Shown: positions 1-9,138 of the stretch, piece after piece
Layout of the letters: every line of letters starts with the position of its first letter
How positions within the stretch are numbered: the first letter of the stretch is position 1
Virus record (IMG/VR): IMGVR_UViG_2778261657_000004
Strand: one strand, 5' to 3'
Length of the DNA stretch: 10,376 nucleotides
DNA from: a virus
Lineage: Duplodnaviria; Heunggongvirae; Uroviricota; Caudoviricetes
The notes under the pieces: generated by a model
What the model was told of the DNA's origin: nothing
Seen by the model: only the letters and a program-made list of their open reading frames with translations
Databases searched by the model: none
Program-made: the position numbers and the translations under genes

Positions 1-1236
1 CTACGATAACCGCGCATTCAACATGGCTACCTGTTCGTCGTTCATGTCATCAATCCACATACCGTAAATTTCATACACCATCTGCGCAGTTTCATGCCCC
101 ATCTGGCTGGCTATAAACGCCGGGTTCGCTCCTGCCGTCAACAGCCAGCAGGCAAAAGTATGCCGCGTATGGTACGGATTACGGCGGCGAATACCAGCAC
201 GTTTTACTGCTGCATTCCATCTCGCACCCAAACTGCTTACCGAGTAATAAGGTTTCTGTTTTCCGTTACACACTCTGGGCATGAAAACAAAATGTAGTTT
301 TTGCTTTTCGGTTCTGCCGTACTCCCGATGGTAAAAAGTGATTTCGCCTTTGCGATGATGCCCGGTCAGTTTGTATTGCTCCTTCAGTGCTTCAAGAGCA
401 GGCTGCAGTAGCGTTACTGTCCGGATCCCGGCATTTGTTTTTGGGGGACCGAACATATCAAGTATCGTCAGGTTTCTTCTGACATTCACTATTCCCTTCT
501 CGAGATCCACATCCTCCCACGCCAGAGCTGCCAGTTCCCCGTGACGAAGTCCTGAGTAAACGGCAAATTTCCACAAGTTCTGGCTCTGTCCTTTTTCACT
601 TTCCATTAATGCATTGAATTCTGTTTTAGATAACGGATCCGGCTTTATTCTGTTTCGCTGTAATTTTTTTACTCCTTCAAATGGTTTGGTTGATATAAAT
701 CCCGACTGATACGCAAAACGTAACAGCGAACAGAGCAGGGCGATATAGTTATCAACTGTGCGCACGGTTCTTCCTTTTTTGTTGGATCTTGGATTATCCA
801 GGTAAAGCGTTTCTCCATGCAGCAGTTCATTCCGGTAGTTTAGGATATCGCTATAACGAATATGTGATATCGGGGTACTTTCACAAATTATTATTCTGAG
901 TGTTTTTAATTGTGATTTCGTTTTCTTCATTGTGTTTGTTGTTAACTCTGTCTCTTTAATTTTTGTCCAGATAACACAAAGCTCCCCGAACGTTTTTATG
1001 ACTCTCGTTGTCACCATTTTTGCCCCAGTGCTGGACTGGGGAAAACGTCTTAAATACTCAAATTCACCGGAGTTTATTTCATGAACTATCAGCGCTCTTA
1101 AATTTCCGGCCTTTTTAATATTACTGTTTGTAATCTCCCAGCCTTTTAATGTTTCCCGACATCGTTTTCCTCGAAACATGAACCAGATGCGAATGTTTCT
1201 ACCTCTAATCTCGACACCTGTTGGTAATTTAGACAT
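1..1236 (-). CDS. intR: Tyrosine-type site-specific recombinase / prophage integrase (Rac IntR-like)
   Basis: 411-codon ORF, stop at 1-3, ATG at 1234-1236. C-terminal catalytic region has ...PYHTRHTFA... (H-x-x-R) and a terminal ...QMVYEIYGMW... tyrosine, typical of phage integrases. The N-terminus MSKLPTGVEIRGR... matches my recollection of Rac IntR. Confidence 0.93.
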   Translation of the reverse strand: MSKLPTGVEIRGRNIRIWFMFRGKRCRETLKGWEITNSNIKKAGNLRALIVHEINSGEFEYLRRFPQSSTGAKMVTTRVIKTFGELCVIWTKIKETELTTNTMKKTKSQLKTLRIIICESTPISHIRYSDILNYRNELLHGETLYLDNPRSNKKGRTVRTVDNYIALLCSLLRFAYQSGFISTKPFEGVKKLQRNRIKPDPLSKTEFNALMESEKGQSQNLWKFAVYSGLRHGELAALAWEDVDLEKGIVNVRRNLTILDMFGPPKTNAGIRTVTLLQPALEALKEQYKLTGHHRKGEITFYHREYGRTEKQKLHFVFMPRVCNGKQKPYYSVSSLGARWNAAVKRAGIRRRNPYHTRHTFACWLLTAGANPAFIASQMGHETAQMVYEIYGMWIDDMNDEQVAMLNARLS

Positions 1237-1237
1237 A

Positions 1238-1453
1238 TCATGAGTCTTTGATAAACTGATTTATCTTTGGATAGTTGTACCAGATAATCCCTCGTTTGCT
1301 GTCTGGCTTACCTAAAGGAGATACTCGTTTGAAGTGGAAGCCCTCCACCCAACAGTTCTGGCGGTATGCTTCAATTTGTCTGGCCCCCAGACCAGTGCGA
1401 AGCATCAGGCCGTATTCAACCATCCACTCTTCATTAAAGATTACTTGTGCCAT
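1238..1453 (-). CDS. xisR: Excisionase-like small protein (Rac YdaQ/XisR family), 71 aa from internal ATG
   Basis: Small ORF immediately upstream of int: its TGA stop (1238-1240) is 1 nt from the int ATG. The 71-aa length from Met at 1451-1453 ([10 protein letters not shown]...) fits Rac YdaQ. The ORF-track start at 1477 is a less likely N-terminal extension. Confidence 0.72.
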
Positions 1454-1552
1454 CGCATCACCTCTGGCAGGCGCCAATGTTAGACTGAAATTGACGCCTG
1501 ATGTTGATTATTAATAATCAGCTATGAAGTTTTAATTTGAATACAATGCAAT

Positions 1553-1741
1553 TCACGAGGACTGAAGTTTCTCGCAATTAAAATTTATCAGTTTTACTTT
1601 CTGCTCTCTGGAAACGCCTGCTTCTTTTTTACCTGAGAGCATTTTTTCGCATTCTGATTTCGTTAGTTTAGATTTTGAATATCTTGTCCAGTTAGTAGGA
1701 GTGCCACCTTCCTTTTCAATTGTAGCGGTAATTTTATACAT
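1553..1741 (-). CDS. ydaC: Small prophage protein, YdaC-like (function unknown)
   Basis: ORF 1553..1813. Preferred start is the ATG at 1739-1741 (MYKITATIEKEGG...), preceded by GGAGG 5 nt upstream. This start overlaps the ralR stop in an ATGTATAA arrangement. Confidence 0.6.
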   Translation of the reverse strand: MYKITATIEKEGGTPTNWTRYSKSKLTKSECEKMLSGKKEAGVSREQKVKLINFNCEKLQSS

Positions 1742-1940
1742 GAACGCCTCCATTAATATTTTCAGTGGTTCGTTTATTCCATCTTTCGAGCGCTTCTTTT
1801 TCACTTCCACCATAGCCAGTTCGGGATTCGCATCCGTTGCATTTTGCCCGGTAATATCCTGAAATGTCTTTCACCGTTACTGATGGACAACCACAAAACG
1901 GACATGGTTTAACATCGTCATATCTCAAAGTTTTTGTCAT
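1734..1940 (-). CDS. ralR: Restriction alleviation protein RalR/Lar (reported as type I toxin, DNase)
   Basis: Translation MTKTLRYDDVKPCPFCGCPSVTVKDISGYYRAKCNGCESRTGYGGSEKEALERWNKRTT... has the Cys-rich CPFCGC...CNGC motif of the Lar/RalR family. It sits between ydaC and recT as in Rac. Confidence 0.85.
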   Translation of the reverse strand: MTKTLRYDDVKPCPFCGCPSVTVKDISGYYRAKCNGCESRTGYGGSEKEALERWNKRTTENINGGVHV

Positions 1941-1984
1941 AAAAACTATCTCACGTTGGCGGTGCATTACACCGCCAGGCTGGA

Positions 1985-2818
1985 TTATTCTTCTGGATTA
2001 TCGATTACACTGTATTCCCCGGCTATAACCGATATGTCGTCTGGATTAATTGTTTCCACCTCTTTTCCATCCATCGATACTGCACGCTGGATTTCAATAG
2101 ATACCGGCAGATACTTGAACAGTTTTCGTATCACTGTCTTTTTGGCCATGTCTTCAAAGTGTTCATCCCAGATGGACGACGCCCCTTTTGACGCTGCGTT
2201 TTTTGCCGCCTTGCTGTGTGTGTCGCGAACTTTTTCTACTTGTTTGCTGGTCATGACTTCAAACTGCACTCCTCCGTCTTTCAGTTTTGCAACAGCATAG
2301 ACATGGGTTATAGGGGCATCTTCGTTTTCACCGGGACGATGAACCAGTTTTTCATCAAGGCCAAGTTCATAGCTGAATTCATCACATTCACGGACAACAC
2401 GAGCTGACAGACTGATGATTTGACCTGATCGACGGGCAAGGTCGATCATGCCGCGATAACCGATGATCAGCTGTACGTTCTTCTTACCGTTTTTTGCTTT
2501 TCCGTTGCCGAACGGTAGCAGATATGCATGACCGAGGGCGCTACCTGGCTCAAGTCCGAGCTGTGAACACTGTACGATGGCACCGATAAAACTCGTCGAG
2601 TCACAGTTTCTTAGTTCCGGTACTTTACGGATTTCTGTTGTAGCAATGCGGATCATGCGTTCCGCTGTCATGTGACGTGGCAGAGCTGCTGCCAGTTGCG
2701 CTTTCATTGCCGGGCTGTTAATCACGCACAGCACATCCTTATCGTTAACTGCTGCTGGTGCACGGTTTCCCTGAGTTTTTTGCAGATCGGCTTTTGCGAT
2801 AGGTGGTTGCTTAGTCAT
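1985..2818 (-). CDS. recT: RecT single-strand annealing recombinase
   Basis: Translation from ATG at 2816-2818 ([24 protein letters not shown]...) matches RecT along its length, including ...[24 protein letters not shown]... and ...[17 protein letters not shown].... AGGAG lies 7 nt upstream, and the ATG is embedded in the last recE codons (AATGACTAA overlap). The ORF-track start at 2875 is rejected. Confidence 0.92.
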
Positions 2819-4040
2819 TTGCATACTCCTTAGCCCAGCGGGGCAGTGATAACGTCTTAATAGCTGGCCATTCATCGGTATTTAGGCAGTCAGCCAGGGT
2901 CCGCAGATTGCGGTGATATTCCTGCTGGCCTGCCAGTTTTGCTTCTTCGCCCATCATGAAAATCTCAACCGGATAACGTCCGCATTCAACAGTTGTGCTG
3001 GCAACCAGAAAAACGAAAGTTGGCTGCACACCAAACTGTGCTTCATAACCGTCACTGTAGAATGCATCCTGAACGTGATAGCGGTAGTCGTAATAAGCCA
3101 TTTTGAATCGTTGAATATCCGCTGTGGTTTTCACGTCCATGATCCAGTGAAATTCAGGAATAATTTTGTCCGGACGGCACCGACACAAAATTCCTGTTTC
3201 CGGATCTTCCCAGTAAATTGATGATTCAGCGTGTCCGGCGCTTTCAACAAGCCATTGCCCCAGCGGCAAAGCCATAACGCTTTGATACATGAGTTCAATT
3301 TTCCGGCCTTCTTCCGCAGTGATAACCGTTTTTCCTGTGCTTGCGCATTCCATCAGAAACGCTTTCTCTTCTTCTTTTCCGGCGTTTGTACGGCGGTTAA
3401 ATTCAGGTGCTACGATAAAGCGGTTACTGAATTCTTCCGGTTCAAGTACCCGGCAGTGGAAAGCGGTTCCTAAATCGAGCGTTTTTGTCTTTGTAGTGTC
3501 CACGGGGGCATTTTTACGCCACAAATACAGTGCCGGAGTATCAGCAATGTCATCGAGCTGAGACTTACTGACACCGGGACCCGCGTGGTAATTCTCATTC
3601 GAAATTCCGTAATAAATACCTGGCTCTATGTCTTCTACGATTACGGGATCTGCGACTTCGCCAGTTTCATCACTGCAATCGCGATGCGGATCGCTGCCAG
3701 CATTCTCATTGTGCGGATGTTCAGCGCCTTCCATTTCCTCCGGATCTTTTTCCTTAGCTTCAACCTGATTCTCTTCACCGAATGTTTCCTGGTATGTTGC
3801 GTCGCCCATCACCGCACCACAGTCAGGGCAGTTATCCCCGCCAGTCTGACCGCAGGCATTGCAGACTATTTCCGGTTCCTGTTGCACTACTGGCTCAGGT
3901 TGTTTCGCATCCGGGCTGATTTTTTCCGTTTCTGGCTGGTTCTGGTACACAGAATCGCGAGTCTGGAGCCCCTTAACCCATTTCGGATCGTTCGGGTCGC
4001 TAATTCCGTCAACAAATTCACCACGTGATGCAGCAAGCAA
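2811..4040 (-). CDS. recE: Exodeoxyribonuclease VIII RecE, C-terminal portion only (5'-truncated; possible pseudogene). The frame stays open upstream to 4190 without a convincing start.
   Basis: The 409-aa ORF (TTG at 4038-4040) reads ...[30 protein letters not shown]... through to ...[13 protein letters not shown], which is the C-terminal half of RecE including the nuclease domain. The same frame continues upstream as ...[47 protein letters not shown] until a stop at 4191-4193, with no ATG and no Shine-Dalgarno. K-12 RecE is 866 aa, so roughly the first 400 codons are missing. Confidence 0.85.
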
Positions 4041-4169
4041 TTTATCGGCATCGACAGGATTTTTTGATGGAATGTTTTTCCGGGCTTCATGGAGTTCTGC
4101 CCGCAGTTCCTGATATTTCGCATCAACAGAATTTACCTGTGACTGAGCATCCAGCGGCTGCGTGTTCTG

Positions 4170-4298
4170 ATGATGTTCAGTTGGCCTAAATCACTTTCTG
4201 TTGCCATTGGTGGTGGGGTGGGGCTGATTGGTGTTGATGCTATTCGTGGTGCGGCAATGAGGGTCATCGGTAACAAGTTCGGTGCCCATAAGGAGTAA
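4170..4298 (+). pseudogene. Possible 3' remnant of a holin (S-like) gene abutting the endolysin
   Basis: Short frame [42 protein letters not shown] ending at TAA 4296-4298, 3 nt before the endolysin ATG, in the position a holin normally occupies. It has one hydrophobic stretch followed by a charged tail. Its 5' part overlaps the recE frame, so it cannot be complete. Identity as a holin is not verified. Confidence 0.25.
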
Positions 4299-4301
4299 TT
4301 A

Positions 4302-4778
4302 ATGCAGACACTTAATTCCCAGCGTAAAGCTTTCCTTGATATGGTGGCATGGTCAGAAGGAACAGATAACGGACGGCAGAAAACCAGAAATCACGGTTAT
4401 GATGTTATTGTCGGTGGCGAACTGTTCACTGATTACTCCGATCACCCCCGCAAACTTGTCACGCTAAATCCGAAACTCAAATCAACAGCCGCTGGACGTT
4501 ACCAGCTTCTTTCACGCTGGTGGGATGCCTACCGCAAGCAACTTGGCCTGAAAGATTTTTCTCCAGAAAGTCAGGATGCTGTAGCGCTGCAGCAGATTAA
4601 AGAGCGTGGCGCTTTGCCGATGATTGATCGCGGTGATATCCGTCAGGCTATCGACCGTTGCAGCAATATATGGGCTTCACTGCCGGGCGCTGGTTATGGT
4701 CAGTTCGAGCATAAGGCTGACAGTCTGATTGCAAAATTCAAAGAAGCTGGCGGAACGGTCAGAGAGATTGAGGTATGA
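4302..4778 (+). CDS. R: Phage endolysin, lambda R-type lytic transglycosylase
   Basis: 158-aa translation [53 protein letters not shown]... is near-identical to lambda R as I recall it, including the catalytic Glu in AWSEGTD. AGGAG at 4291-4295 sits 6 nt upstream of the ATG. The TGA stop overlaps the Rz ATG (ATGA). Confidence 0.95.
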
Positions 4779-5239
4779 GCAGAGTAACCGCGATTATCTC
4801 CGCTCTGGTTATCTGCATCGTCGTCTGCCTGTCATGGGGTGTTAATCATTACCGTGATAACGCCATCGCCTACAAAGAACAGCGCGACAAAAATGCCAGA
4901 GAACTGAAGCTGGCGAACGCGGCAATTACTGACATGCAGATGCGTCAGCGTGATGTTGCTGCGCTCGATGCAAAATACACGAAGGAGTTAGCTGATGCGA
5001 AAGCTGAAAATGATGCTCTGCGTGATGATGTTGCCGCTGGTCGTCGTCGGTTGCACATCAAAGCAGTCTGTCAGTCAGTGCGTGAAGCCACCACCGCCTC
5101 CGGCGTGGATAATGCAGCCTCCCCCCGACTGGCAGACACCGCTGAACGGGATTATTTCACCCTCCGGGAACGACTGGTAATGATGCAGGCCCAACTTGAA
5201 GGTGCTCAGCAATACATAACCGAGCAGTGTTTAAAGTAA
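4775..5239 (+). CDS. rzpR: Spanin inner-membrane subunit Rz (i-spanin)
   Basis: 154-aa translation [21 protein letters not shown]... has an N-terminal transmembrane helix followed by a charged coiled-coil-like region, as in lambda Rz. Its start overlaps the R stop. Confidence 0.9.
4995..5180 (+). CDS. rzoR: Spanin outer-membrane lipoprotein subunit Rz1 (o-spanin), embedded in the +1 frame of Rz
   Basis: 61-aa translation [24 protein letters not shown]...[15 protein letters not shown] has a lipoprotein signal peptide with lipobox LVVVGC and a Pro-rich mature part. GAAGGAG sits 7 nt upstream of the ATG. It lies wholly inside Rz, as lambda Rz1 does. Confidence 0.87.
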
Positions 5240-5289
5240 AATCTTAACTACAATATGATTCATTTTGATGATTGTTTCATAAGGAACAG

Positions 5290-5376
5290 TGAAGTAAGAT
5301 CTAAGAGGAGTTAAATTTTATACAGTATAATCATAATATTGCAGCAAGGTGGTTATAATTGAAAGAATATTTAGAT
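5290..5376 (+). promoter_or_regulatory. AT-rich trkG upstream region with several -10-like hexamers and an SD (promoter not resolved)
   Basis: TATAAT at 5326-5331 and 5354-5359, CATAAT at 5332-5337, and AAGGTGG at 5346-5352. No convincing -35 at 17-bp spacing was found by eye, so the exact promoter is unassigned. Confidence 0.25.
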
Positions 5377-6834
5377 ATGAATACATCTCATGTAAGAGTT
5401 GTTACTCATATGTGTGGGTTCCTGGTTTGGCTCTATAGTCTTTCAATGTTGCCACCAATGGTTGTAGCATTGTTTTATAAAGAAAAAAGCCTGTTCGTTT
5501 TCTTAATAACTTTCGTTATATTTTTTTGCATTGGTGGCGGAGCGTGGTATACAACTAAGAAATCTGGCATTCAATTACGTACCCGTGATGGGTTTATTAT
5601 AATTGTAATGTTTTGGATTTTGTTTTCTGTTATTAGTGCATTCCCTTTATGGATTGACTCAGAACTTAATTTAACGTTCATTGATGCTCTGTTTGAAGGG
5701 GTTTCTGGAATAACAACAACAGGAGCAACTGTAATTGATGATGTTAGTTCATTACCTCGGGCATATTTGTACTATCGGTCACAGTTAAATTTTATAGGTG
5801 GTTTAGGAGTTATTGTTCTGGCGGTTGCTGTATTGCCATTATTGGGTATTGGTGGTGCAAAGCTTTATCAGTCAGAAATGCCGGGGCCATTTAAGGATGA
5901 CAAACTCACTCCCCGCCTGGCCGATACGTCACGGACACTGTGGATAACTTATTCTTTATTAGGTATTGCTTGTATTGTCTGTTATAGACTTGCAGGAATG
6001 CCTTTGTTTGATGCTATTTGTCACGGGATTTCCACAGTTTCGCTTGGTGGTTTCTCAACTCATAGCGAGAGTATCGGATATTTTAATAACTATTTGGTTG
6101 AGCTGGTGGCTGGTTCTTTTTCCCTGCTATCGGCTTTCAACTTCACTCTTTGGTATATTGTTATTAGCAGGAAAACGATAAAACCTTTAATCAGAGATAT
6201 TGAACTTCGTTTCTTTCTGTTAATAGCCTTAGGGGTGATCATTGTTACCTCTTTCCAGGTCTGGCATATAGGTATGTATGACTTGCATGGAAGTTTTATT
6301 CATTCGTTTTTTCTTGCCAGCTCCATGCTCACTGATAATGGTTTAGCTACGCAGGATTATGCAAGTTGGCCCACGCACACGATAGTGTTTTTGCTGTTGT
6401 CAAGTTTCTTTGGGGGATGTATAGGTTCAACTTGTGGTGGAATTAAGTCACTTCGATTTCTTATACTTTTCAAACAAAGCAAACACGAGATAAATCAGCT
6501 TTCTCATCCCAGAGCGTTGTTGAGTGTAAATGTAGGAGGGAAGATAGTTACAGATCGTGTAATGAGGTCTGTATGGAGTTTCTTTTTTCTTTATACTCTC
6601 TTCACGGTGTTTTTTATACTGGTGTTAAATGGTATGGGATATGATTTTCTTACATCATTTGCAACAGTGGCTGCATGTATTAATAATATGGGATTAGGTT
6701 TTGGGGCTACTGCATCGTCATTCGGAGTGCTTAATGACATTGCAAAATGTTTAATGTGCATAGCTATGATTCTTGGTCGCCTTGAAATTTATCCTGTTAT
6801 TATATTGTTTTCAGGTTTTTTTTGGCGCTCCTAA
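5377..6834 (+). CDS. trkG: Potassium uptake protein TrkG (Trk-system membrane subunit)
   Basis: 485-aa translation from ATG 5377 (MNTSHVRVVTHMCGFLVWLYSLSMLPP...) is a polytopic membrane protein matching TrkG as I recall it. The coding sequence is visibly AT-rich relative to its neighbours. An alternative TTG start at 5359 has the AAGGTGG SD 6 nt upstream. Confidence 0.94.
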   Translation: MNTSHVRVVTHMCGFLVWLYSLSMLPPMVVALFYKEKSLFVFLITFVIFFCIGGGAWYTTKKSGIQLRTRDGFIIIVMFWILFSVISAFPLWIDSELNLTFIDALFEGVSGITTTGATVIDDVSSLPRAYLYYRSQLNFIGGLGVIVLAVAVLPLLGIGGAKLYQSEMPGPFKDDKLTPRLADTSRTLWITYSLLGIACIVCYRLAGMPLFDAICHGISTVSLGGFSTHSESIGYFNNYLVELVAGSFSLLSAFNFTLWYIVISRKTIKPLIRDIELRFFLLIALGVIIVTSFQVWHIGMYDLHGSFIHSFFLASSMLTDNGLATQDYASWPTHTIVFLLLSSFFGGCIGSTCGGIKSLRFLILFKQSKHEINQLSHPRALLSVNVGGKIVTDRVMRSVWSFFFLYTLFTVFFILVLNGMGYDFLTSFATVAACINNMGLGFGATASSFGVLNDIAKCLMCIAMILGRLEIYPVIILFSGFFWRS

Positions 6835-6920
6835 TATATGGCTGATTTATAATTGTGAGTTTAATATTATGTTGACTCACTCATTGATCCAATACCTAAC
6901 TTTACCAGCAACACCTCCGT

Positions 6921-6958
6921 CCCCAGTAGCACTGGCTGCTGGGGTGCGTTTTATTCAT
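6921..6958 (+). terminator. Candidate rho-independent terminator downstream of trkG
   Basis: Inverted repeat CCCCAGTAGC (6921-6930) / GCTGCTGGGG (6935-6944) forms a 10-bp stem with one G-U wobble around loop ACTG, followed by TGCGTTTTATT. The T-tract is short and separated from the stem by 4 nt, so this is moderate at best. Confidence 0.35.
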
Positions 6959-6971
6959 AAAGCAAGGCTGT

Positions 6972-7763
6972 ATGAGCGAGAAATTAAAGATAGTCTATCG
7001 CCCATTACAAGAATTGTCACCGTATGCGCACAACGCCAGGACGCACAGTACTGAGCAGGTGGCACAACTGGAAGAAAGTATTAAGCAATTCGGCTGGACT
7101 AATCCGGTGCTGATTGACGAAAAGGGCGAAATTATTGCGGGTCACGGTCGTGTTATGGCGGCTGAAATGCTCAAAATGGATTCTGTTCCGGTCATTGTTC
7201 TGTCTGGCCTGACGGATGAGCAGAAAAAGGCGTACCGCCTGGCAGATAATCGCCTGCCGATGAATGCTGGCTGGGGTGAAGATCTGTTGCGGATGGAGCT
7301 GTCGGACCTAATCAATGCTGATTTTGATGTCTCCCTGACAGGCTTCATCCCGACAGAAATTGATGAACTGTTGACGGATGTTTTGCCCGGTACAGGAAAT
7401 GAGGAGGAGCCGTATACGACGAAAATTGATACGCCTGTTTATGAGCCGTCGGGCGGTAAACCGGATATCAGTGAACTGTACGACGATACGAAAACTCAGG
7501 AGCTGATCAGCCGGATACGTTCGGCGTCCCTTGAGCCTGATATTGAGAAATTCCTCCTGTGTGCGGCAGAACGTCACACGGTGTTTAATTTCAGCAGAAT
7601 TGCGGACTATTACGCTCACGCCCCCGCTGAAATTCAGTGTTTTTTCGAGGAGTCGGCGCTGGTGATCATTGATTATCAGCAGGCTATTGAAAATGGATTT
7701 GTCCGGATGACGCAGCGCATGGTGGAGATCATGCATGGTGGTGAGGAGGAGGAATATGCGTGA
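6972..7763 (+). CDS. ynaK: ParB-like nuclease-domain (ParB/Sulfiredoxin superfamily) protein, 263 aa; full-length relative of short Rac YnaK
   Basis: N-terminal region KIVYRPLQELSPYAHNARTHSTEQVAQLEESIKQFGWTNPVLIDEKGEIIAGHGRVMAA has the ParB N-terminal domain pattern (GxGR variant of the GERR box). The C-terminal ~150 aa are acidic with no domain I can assign, ending ...HGGEEEEYA. K-12 YnaK is, as I recall, only ~87 aa. Confidence 0.82.
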   Translation: MSEKLKIVYRPLQELSPYAHNARTHSTEQVAQLEESIKQFGWTNPVLIDEKGEIIAGHGRVMAAEMLKMDSVPVIVLSGLTDEQKKAYRLADNRLPMNAGWGEDLLRMELSDLINADFDVSLTGFIPTEIDELLTDVLPGTGNEEEPYTTKIDTPVYEPSGGKPDISELYDDTKTQELISRIRSASLEPDIEKFLLCAAERHTVFNFSRIADYYAHAPAEIQCFFEESALVIIDYQQAIENGFVRMTQRMVEIMHGGEEEEYA

Positions 7764-8688
7764 TGATTTTTGCGCCTTTATTCTGACTCACGGGCGACCG
7801 GACAAAGTTCTGACTTACCGGACGTTGCGTCGTGCTGGCTATACCGGGAAAATTTTTATCGTTGTTGATGATGAAGATAAGACACGGCATCAGTACATGG
7901 CTGAATTTGGTGAACAGGTGCTGGTGTTTTCCAAAGCCGATATCGCCAGTCGTTTTGACGAAGCCGATAATTTCTGTGACCGCCGCTCAATTTTTTACGC
8001 CCGTAATGCCTGTTTCGACCAGGCAAAACTGGTCGGGTGTAAATACTTCATTCAGCTCGATGATGATTATCACGAGTTCCAGTTTCGGGTGGATCGCAAC
8101 TATGACCAGGCCTATTTTCCGATAAGGAAACTGGATGCGATCCTTTCTGAAATGCTGGCGTACTACGAATCAATACCTGCTCTTTCCATCGCTATGTCGC
8201 AGGGAGGGGATTTTCTTGGTGACAATGGCGGCCATGCTTCGTGGGTGAAACGCAAGGCAATGAACAGCTTTATCTGTTCGGTTGATCGACCGTTCTCATT
8301 CATGGGGCGCATTAACGAGGATGTGAATACGTACACGAATCTCGGTCGCTGTGGTGAATTGTTTATGACGATCGGTGCTGTCCAGTTAGGGCAGAAACAG
8401 ACGCAGAAAAACAGCGGCGGAATGACCGAGCTGTATCTGGATTCCGGAACCTACGTTAAAAGTTTTTACTCCGTCATGTATGCGCCGTCGTGCGTAAAAA
8501 TCTCACTGATGGGTGCCAGCCATAAACGCATTCACCATCAGGTCACCTGGAACAACGCTGCAGTAAAAATCCTTCACGAAAAATACAGGAAGAAGACACC
8601 CTGCATATCAATGGGGGTGACAAATGATTCCGTATTCGAAAGTCGAGTCTCTGGCAGCGTGCCGGATGACTGCACAACAAATCGCTGA
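7756..8688 (+). CDS. Hypothetical prophage protein (~310 aa) with GT-A-like motif pattern (possible nucleotide-sugar transferase fold); function unknown
   Basis: ATG at 7756 is preceded by the GAGGAGGAGG purine run and overlaps the upstream stop (ATGCGTGA). The N-terminus has a beta-alpha-beta pattern AFILTHGRPDK...GKIFIVVDDEDK, with a DxD-like YFIQLDDDY about 60 residues later, spacing typical of GT-A glycosyltransferases. There is no Walker A motif. This is inference from motifs only. Confidence 0.6.
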   Translation: MRDDFCAFILTHGRPDKVLTYRTLRRAGYTGKIFIVVDDEDKTRHQYMAEFGEQVLVFSKADIASRFDEADNFCDRRSIFYARNACFDQAKLVGCKYFIQLDDDYHEFQFRVDRNYDQAYFPIRKLDAILSEMLAYYESIPALSIAMSQGGDFLGDNGGHASWVKRKAMNSFICSVDRPFSFMGRINEDVNTYTNLGRCGELFMTIGAVQLGQKQTQKNSGGMTELYLDSGTYVKSFYSVMYAPSCVKISLMGASHKRIHHQVTWNNAAVKILHEKYRKKTPCISMGVTNDSVFESRVSGSVPDDCTTNR

Positions 8689-8908
8689 CGTTCTGGATGT
8701 TGATCTGAACCGACTGAAAGAAAATCGGGAAGCCGCGTGGGAAATCTGGAGTAAAACACTGACTGGAGAAACAGTTCCGTTCAGCTTCACGCTTTCGAAT
8801 GGAGAGGGGGCATACACTTTCAGTTTCCCGAAGGTTCAGGTGTCAGGTGAATGGCCTGATGGGGGTAATAGCGACATTATCAGAAGTGGAACGGCACAGC
8901 CTGGGTGA
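8624..8908 (+). CDS. Hypothetical 94-aa protein or remnant of an unidentified phage gene
   Basis: ORF with SD GGGGGTG 5 nt upstream of ATG 8624. It overlaps the 3' end of the preceding gene by 65 nt in another frame. The N-terminus has a helix-turn-helix-like stretch ([20 protein letters not shown]). Its TGA stop overlaps the GTG that opens the tfa fragment. No family assigned. Confidence 0.3.
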
Positions 8909-9138
8909 AGGATACGGAAGCAGAAAAACTGTTCCGGATCCGGGAGGCGGAAGAAACAAAAAAAAGCCTGATGCAGGTAGCCAGTGAGCATATTGCGCCG
9001 CTTCAGGATGCTGCAGATCTGGAAATTGCAACGGAGGAAGAAATCTCGTTGCTGGAAGCATGGAAAAAGTATCGGGTATTGCTGAACCGTGTTGATACGT
9101 CAACTGCACAGGATATTGAATGGCCAGCACTGCCGTAG
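8881..9138 (+). pseudogene. tfaR: Tail fibre assembly protein (TfaR-like), 3' fragment only
   Basis: Frame reads [86 protein letters not shown], the conserved C-terminus of lambdoid Tfa proteins. The frame is closed by TAG at 8869-8871 immediately upstream, so the N-terminal ~100 codons and the whole stf gene are absent. Confidence 0.75.

Follow-up and report, generated by a model that had tools for sequence, protein, structure and literature searches.

The DNA analysed here (the window) is the 10,376-nt stretch of IMG/VR virus record IMGVR_UViG_2778261657_000004, which is filled by a Rac-type cryptic prophage remnant of Escherichia coli in which an intact recT and the 3' part of recE face a truncated lysis cassette across a deletion junction. 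The element belongs to the Rac family by its integration next to ttcA and by the synteny intR-xisR ... recT-recE ... trkG ... pinR, as seen in the flanks of strain AR_0061 and of draft loci and in alignments to the Rac prophages of K-12 and REL606. A contig of assembly GCA_002543575.1 (locus L013) matches the window at 100% identity over 10,040 nt, and the closed genome of AR_0061 is near-identical to it, with the element lying beside ttcA, like Rac in K-12. The features at and around the junction, including open reading frames (ORFs) and Shine-Dalgarno (SD) sequences, are as follows.

1985..2818, minus strand: recT, intact, 277 codons (Pfam PF03837, E = 1.7e-50)
2826..2831, minus strand: AAGGAG SD of recT, 7 nt before its ATG and within the recE frame (-8.6 kcal/mol)
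2811..4183, minus strand: 3' remnant of recE, a pseudogene (BLASTP against K-12 RecE; Pfam PF12684; RefSeq)
2814..3596, minus strand: complete RecE nuclease domain, residues 606-866 (PDB 3H4R alignment)
3732..3734, minus strand: internal in-frame ATG (K-12 M560), with GGAGG ending 2 nt upstream (anti-SD energy -5.4 kcal/mol)
4038..4040, minus strand: first in-frame start-type codon of the remnant, TTG (K-12 residue 458), without SD (ORF list, anti-SD energy)
4182..4183: deletion junction, a 2-bp microhomology, TG on the plus strand and CA in the recE sense (RM9513 comparison, base-by-base view)
4191..4193, minus strand: in-frame TGA that ends the recE frame upstream, inside holin-antisense sequence (translation)
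4182..4298, plus strand: lambda-family holin remnant, codons 76-113 of 113 (PF05106 positions 65-99 of 99 only)
4302..4778, plus strand: GH24 lysozyme (endolysin), intact ORF, its presumed late promoter and Q-like gene deleted (RefSeq WP_001194112.1)
4775..5239, plus strand: Rz spanin gene, intact ORF (Pfam PF03245, E = 5.6e-53)
4995..5180, plus strand: 61-codon ORF embedded in Rz in another frame (ORF list only)
5151..5180, minus strand: sole minus-strand sigma-70-like match upstream of the recE remnant, TTACCA-18-AATAAT (consensus scan)

The recE frame is open by translation from 4190 down to a TAA stop at 2813-2811, and its upstream end consists of three unrelated foreign codons directly preceded by the stop codon noted above. 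The 456 RecE codons that are left correspond without gaps to residues 411-866 of K-12 RecE (441/456 identical, 97%; BLASTP), so that 410 codons of the K-12 gene, or 427 of the 883-codon allele of strain RM9513, are missing. Chain A residues 4-265 (262 residues) of PDB 3H4R align to the remnant at about 99% identity, and PF12684 matches it at 99.8 bits, as expected of the PD-(D/E)XK nuclease domain of RecE (exodeoxyribonuclease VIII). Since the match to 3H4R reaches E = 1.3e-179, the remnant is to be regarded as a genuine gene fragment and not as a chance ORF. Residues D748, D759 and K761, which are assigned to the active site by the PD-(D/E)XK motif, are unchanged in the alignment to K-12 RecE, as is H652. 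The latter has been described as a metal-binding/catalytic residue of RecE (PMC3239189). The complete frame with start codon and ribosome-binding site that a functional recE gene would need is not there, and RefSeq labels the same stretch in AR_0061 a pseudogene "missing N-terminus". Other lambdoid prophages resemble the recE region at the nucleotide level only in recE up to codon ~590, a racC-like gene and kilR, with the C-terminal part of RecE unaligned; the boundary, at residue ~590 in K-12 numbering (~5117 of the RM9513 locus), falls where the RecE nuclease domain is known to begin.

Downstream of the remnant, recT has the same length as the RefSeq recT of RM9513, and its product covers profile positions 1-192 of the 198 of PF03837, giving a RecT single-strand annealing protein with a full-length domain and a start and SD of its own. 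The two genes share 8 nt (ATGACTAA), from the recT ATG (2818-2816) to the end of recE. The 3' end of recT (2122-2241) differs from that of K-12 (277 codons vs 269), and a DUF1187 gene (1553-1741) sits where K-12 has rcbA; together they are a mosaic replacement common to the window and RM9513. The pairing energy with the 16S anti-SD is +0.3 kcal/mol for TTG 4040, against -8.6 for recT and -8.8 for the lysozyme start, and no SD-linked start was found upstream of M560 in the recE frame by the anti-SD energy of start codons. The best internal start is ATG 3734, the product of which would be RecE 560-866 (307 aa), annotated in some NCBI records; this site was not made by the deletion, as residue 560 is also Met in K-12 RecE. 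A 409-aa product is predicted from TTG 4040 by some gene callers, with the exact protein recorded on 26 contigs, and "PD-(D/E)XK nuclease" proteins of 409, 332 or 307 aa are emitted from the remnant by some callers.

The endpoints of the deletion can be read against RM9513, which carries an almost full-length Rac that is near-identical on both flanks. Window positions 1-4183 correspond to 1476-5658 of the RM9513 locus (L006) with 3 mismatches over 4183 nt, and 4182-8733 to 23136-27687 with 6 mismatches over 4552 nt. Relative to RM9513, 17,479 bp are therefore absent in a single deletion that runs from the interior of recE to holin codon 75, joining recE K-12 codon 410/411 to holin codon 76. 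The parental recE and holin sequences have only the TG at 4182-4183 in common, with the break at 4183/4184, and no insertion sequence (IS) element is involved at this junction, which bears the signature of illegitimate recombination. On the recE side, the lost segment held the 5' 427 recE codons with the ribosome-binding site, the racC-like gene, ydaE, kilR and the early-left control region. Also lost were the immunity genes (sieB, a DUF1391 gene, the repressor, cro and ydaT), the middle of the prophage (replication genes, an anti-phage dGTPase, an MBL-fold gene and hokD) and, on the late side, genes of the DUF1367, DUF1364 and DUF1133 families together with holin codons 1-75 of 113. The block of three DUF genes is taken to be the late-regulator region, with the Q-like gene and the late promoter.

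To the right of the junction, the holin remnant has lost its start and N-terminal two-thirds and is no full-length lambda-family class I holin (PF05106); the intact 113-codon gene is present in strains TA8571 and RM9513, and the fragment is a pseudogene in AR_0061 according to RefSeq. Because only holin profile positions 65-99 remain, the lysis cassette is predicted to be disabled, even with the lysozyme and Rz frames open. From its position, the 61-codon ORF inside Rz is a candidate Rz1. Two short chimeric ORFs cross the junction, one of 42 codons at 4170-4298 on the plus strand, with its ATG in recE-antisense sequence before it runs into the holin C-terminus, and one of 47 codons with a TTG start at 4133-4276 on the minus strand; both are probably meaningless by-products of the deletion.

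These comparisons confirm the sequence statements of a first-pass annotation made from the window alone, all coordinates and counts of which are correct; it had described an open recE frame of about 460 codons from 4190 to the stop at 2811 (456 RecE and 3 foreign codons on alignment), the want of an upstream ATG or SD ahead of TTG 4040, the loss of roughly 400 N-terminal codons from an 866-aa RecE (410 by count), a junction within 4170-4195, the absence of everything from racC to the Q-like gene, which holds against RM9513, and a preserved recE/recT coupling, visible in the overlap and in the closely spaced recT SD. It had likewise proposed that a natural deletion retained the RecE nuclease core plus an intact RecT, and had named loss of the nuclease domain as the observation that would speak against this; the 3H4R and PF03837 matches agree with the proposal, and the 3H4R domain is present in full. 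Its account of recE joined to the late lysis cassette stands for the junction, which is real, and falls short for the cassette, which is itself truncated and has a holin without codons 1-75. The description of the join as "back-to-back" has to be replaced: recE and the holin gene were divergent, and the truncated genes now meet 5'-end to 5'-end.

The idea that the breakpoint marks a mosaic boundary between recE alleles was considered and rejected, the K-12 and RM9513 alleles being 87-100% identical in 60-nt windows on both sides; the divergent block between them lies at codons ~101-221. The breakpoint recurs in TA8571, where an unrelated deletion (2899-4797 of its locus) uses the same CA of recE codon 410 in the opposite direction, keeping recE codons 1-410 and joining them to recT codon ~47, also through a CA microhomology. 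A small hairpin, CTGA-ACATCA-TCAG, begins 1 nt 3' of the shared breakpoint. Coincidence of this kind among the 9 endpoints seen has a chance of ~7%, as reckoned post hoc, and no further hits ending at the breakpoint (position 200/201) were found with a 400-nt query centred there and hits sampled across the whole ranking; the shared breakpoint may be either a hot spot or a coincidence.

Rac commonly carries a truncated recE. At least 80% of the segment comprising recT and recE codons 411-866 is held by ~1672 genomes, and at least 80% of the recT-to-kilR stretch by ~1533. In five other strains, independent 5' truncations have kept recT and fused recE to late-region DNA.

BE2-5: first retained RecE codon 241 (K-12), direct junction into Rz
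2017.02.04CC: first retained RecE codon 295 (K-12), IS element at the junction
JNQH497: first retained RecE codon 334 (K-12), IS element at the junction
2017.01.04CC: first retained RecE codon 375 (K-12), IS element at the junction
2EC1: first retained RecE codon 378 (K-12), IS element at the junction

These strains resemble the window in their loss of the central prophage and their retention of the recE C-terminal part with recT, but they have other endpoints and an IS element at 4/5 junctions, whereas the window join is direct, through 2 bp of microhomology, and leads into the holin gene. The window also differs from BL21(DE3), where recE codons 91-590 are deleted internally and out of frame with racC through kilR kept, and from TA8571, where loss of RecE 411-866 and the first ~46 recT codons has destroyed both the nuclease domain and recT. 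With K-12 Rac it shares the ttcA-adjacent site, the order intR, xisR, ralR/RalA, recT, recE ... trkG ... pinR and the 8-nt recE/recT overlap; unlike K-12, it is without the first 410 codons of recE and without the genes from the racC-like to the Q-like gene, and it has a lambda-type holin and a GH24 lysozyme allele where K-12 has only rzpR/rzoR remnants.

In a survey of 154 genomes, more than half of the E. coli strains had lost half of Rac, and recE and trkG were its best conserved genes; 48% of strains had kilR and 34% had ydaS, the latter never without racR (PMC5700373). A deletion removing racR would be viable only if ydaS/ydaT go too, and loss of kilR removes another toxin, so the expected survivors would be large deletions of the prophage centre that end in or near recE on the left and in the late region on the right. 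For these reasons, selection for the RecE core is not needed to account for the pattern. The nuclease core is in frame and recT intact in 6/8 of the recE-disrupting events examined, a fraction biased towards retained recE, as the comparison strains were retrieved by similarity to this region, and TA8571 provides a counter-example. That Rac deletions preferentially spare the RecE core and recT as a module useful to the host, with stray transcripts and the M560 start giving low constitutive RecE(560-866)/RecT, is given a very small probability.

The junction itself has a narrow distribution. Among 5426 complete E. coli genomes it occurs in one (AR_0061), and a scan of metagenome contigs for the exact 40-nt junction string gave no match, while at least ten draft or read-derived assemblies (NCBI, ENA, Logan read sets) carry it. 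The 40-nt string is present in 9/10 fetched loci, and the tenth (L011, GCA_002513555.1) keeps the junction together with a nested 621-bp deletion (window 4189-4809) that has taken out the lysozyme gene, what was left of the holin gene and the beginning of Rz. Between the loci and the window there are only 0-5 single-nucleotide polymorphisms (SNPs) per 10 kb, which points to a young, tight clade that inherited one deletion event. The clade was found by exact look-up of the 409-aa protein and hence required an unchanged recE ORF, a sampling that favours intactness; given this look-up and the youth of the clade, the unbroken frame says nothing about selection, and a selection test on the remnant was set aside as uninformative on the same grounds.

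Decay continues within this clade. In AR_0061, a 1258-bp IS3 with a 3-bp target duplication lies in recT (window 2111-2113; AR_0061 locus 4254-5511), and draft contig L020 ends at the same recT position; the window and most clade members are without the IS3. Overall, recT is interrupted by IS3 or cut there in 2/11 junction loci, a pattern that suggests neutral decay; it has its 277 codons in 9/10 draft loci. Deletions in the tail region set several members apart. The window is without a 1.2-kb segment with ydaY at 8878-8881 that is present in AR_0061, L012 and L020, the flanks overlapping by 4 bp, which looks like another microhomology deletion, variable within the clade.

The gene order of the window (ORF list, RefSeq, Pfam) is as follows.

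Left part, minus strand, in that order: intR, xisR, DUF1187 gene, ralR, recT, recE fragment
After the recE fragment, plus strand, in that order: holin fragment, lysozyme, Rz, trkG, ParB-N gene, TAGT-like gene
Right end of the gene order, minus strand: pinR

Opposite ralR, at 1557-1735 on the plus strand, lies a match to the RalA antitoxin sRNA (Rfam RF02694, 218.2 bits, above the gathering score), and an IS009 match (Rfam RF02111, 219.5 bits, above the gathering score) lies at 8906-9104 on the plus strand, in the region of a tail-fibre-assembly remnant. The segment 6972-8688 encodes a full-length 263-aa ParB-N domain protein, the K-12 counterpart of which, ynaK, is truncated, and the overlapping gene encodes a 310-317-aa protein with a Pfam TAGT (PF20691) match and the RefSeq name "GREB1-related protein"; the two may be a DNA-modification gene pair lost from K-12 Rac.

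The arrangement had been called "sbcA-like" in the first-pass annotation. Alleles of sbcA are reportedly, according to work of the Clark laboratory, promoter-type mutations, outward-reading insertions or in-frame racC-recE fusions that keep the promoter and start codon; a literature search on the molecular nature of sbcA6, sbcA8, sbcA20 and sbcA23 gave mentions of strain usage only. Both an sbcA-activated Rac and the window have a cis change upstream of the nuclease-coding region of RecE, the N-terminus of which is dispensable for activity, but sbcA turns recE on, whereas the window has lost the promoter, SD and start codon and has been supplied with nothing equivalent. The native control region is deleted, there is no active promoter reading into recE as far as consensus matching can tell, and the RecE portion has gained no translation start, having three foreign codons, then a stop, and no fusion partner. 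The analogy is therefore superficial and fails: sbcA supplies expression, whereas the early-left promoter region, the recE SD and the start codon have gone with this deletion. Upstream, recE now borders on the holin remnant, lysozyme and Rz genes in antisense orientation. Sigma-70 consensus matching over 2700-5500 returned 2 promoter-like sites, fewer than the 3.4 +/- 1.6 of shuffled sequence, and detected no minus-strand site inside the recE remnant or within ~970 nt upstream of it; the one at 5180-5151, about 970 nt from the junction, is a match and as such no evidence of function.

Taken together, the locus is very probably a decayed Rac-family prophage in which a promoterless, start-less recE pseudogene with an undamaged nuclease domain is followed by an intact recT, and is likely silent. 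One illegitimate 17,479-bp deletion at a 2-bp microhomology fused recE codon 410/411 to holin codon 76 and, in the same step, stripped the toxin, immunity and replication genes, the Q-like/late promoter region and the expression signals of recE. The recET genes are thus without the signals that sbcA mutations normally unlock, with silence as their most likely state, and the prophage is no longer able to be induced, replicate, kill or lyse. From the missing signals we infer that the remnant is transcriptionally silent, and several observations weigh against this conclusion. The remnant has no frameshifts or internal stops and encodes a protein that matches the C-terminus of the intact RM9513 RecE residue for residue, the single nucleotide difference (window 4017) being synonymous; recT has kept a strong SD of its own; a stray leftward transcript and the M560 start could in principle yield an active RecE 560-866; and consensus scanning is insensitive to weak or non-canonical promoters.

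An artefact of assembly or a chimeric contig would account for the junction without any deletion; nothing was found in favour of this, and it has been refuted by the recurrence of the same junction in one closed genome and in ten assemblies made independently (NCBI, ENA, Logan), leaving it a negligible probability. The deletion could instead have acted as an sbcA allele does, leading to expression of the truncated RecE core with RecT and to an active RecET pathway in the strain, and the first-pass annotation had indeed suggested that the locus may express an active truncated RecET. Repression of recET is complete in MG1655, where sbcA mutations switch expression on (PMC3945230, PMC10956419), and a RecE fragment that begins at residue 588, combined with RecT, suffices for recombination once expressed (PMC3945230, PMC3118119). 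With its undamaged nuclease domain and recT, the window retains the potential to encode an active RecE/RecT pair; the repressor gene is deleted, and the ATG of M560 has an SD-like GGAGG. Recombineering constructs such as pBAD-ETgamma likewise combine the C-terminal RecE domain with full RecT and the native overlap (PMC3945230, PMC3118119), but they use heterologous promoters and engineered starts with RecE from 588, whereas the remnant begins at 411 and has no expression signals. The repressor-controlled promoter, however, was deleted together with the repressor, the frame has no SD-linked start at its 5' end, and the antisense lysis DNA upstream shows no excess of promoter-like sites over the shuffled expectation, so that the suggested expression finds no support. 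Furthermore, an untranslated leader of about 1 kb or more would be expected to favour Rho-dependent termination, and recT carries the IS3 in AR_0061 and is broken at the same place in L020. An active RecET pathway in the strain is hence considered improbable. A small probability is also given to a function of recT alone, in which its own SD would allow translation of low-level spurious transcripts and the protein would act in single-strand annealing without RecE: the closely placed AAGGAG and the 277 codons kept in most draft loci are consistent with it, but no minus-strand promoter-like site lies inside the recE remnant, recT is disrupted in AR_0061 and cut in L020, and its intactness in the clade is in part a product of the sampling.

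The preferred reading, a probably silent product of prophage decay, makes this a feature of a known kind, and its importance lies mainly in annotation: the remnant is to be read as a pseudogene and not as an activated recombination system. If the remnant were expressed after all, there would be natural isolates with a constitutive minimal RecET, which would be relevant to genome plasticity and strain engineering. As it stands, the locus offers a clean, datable case of Rac decay, in which one microhomology deletion cleared the toxin, immunity and replication block at once, a one-step removal that fits the published rule that ydaS is not found in the absence of racR.

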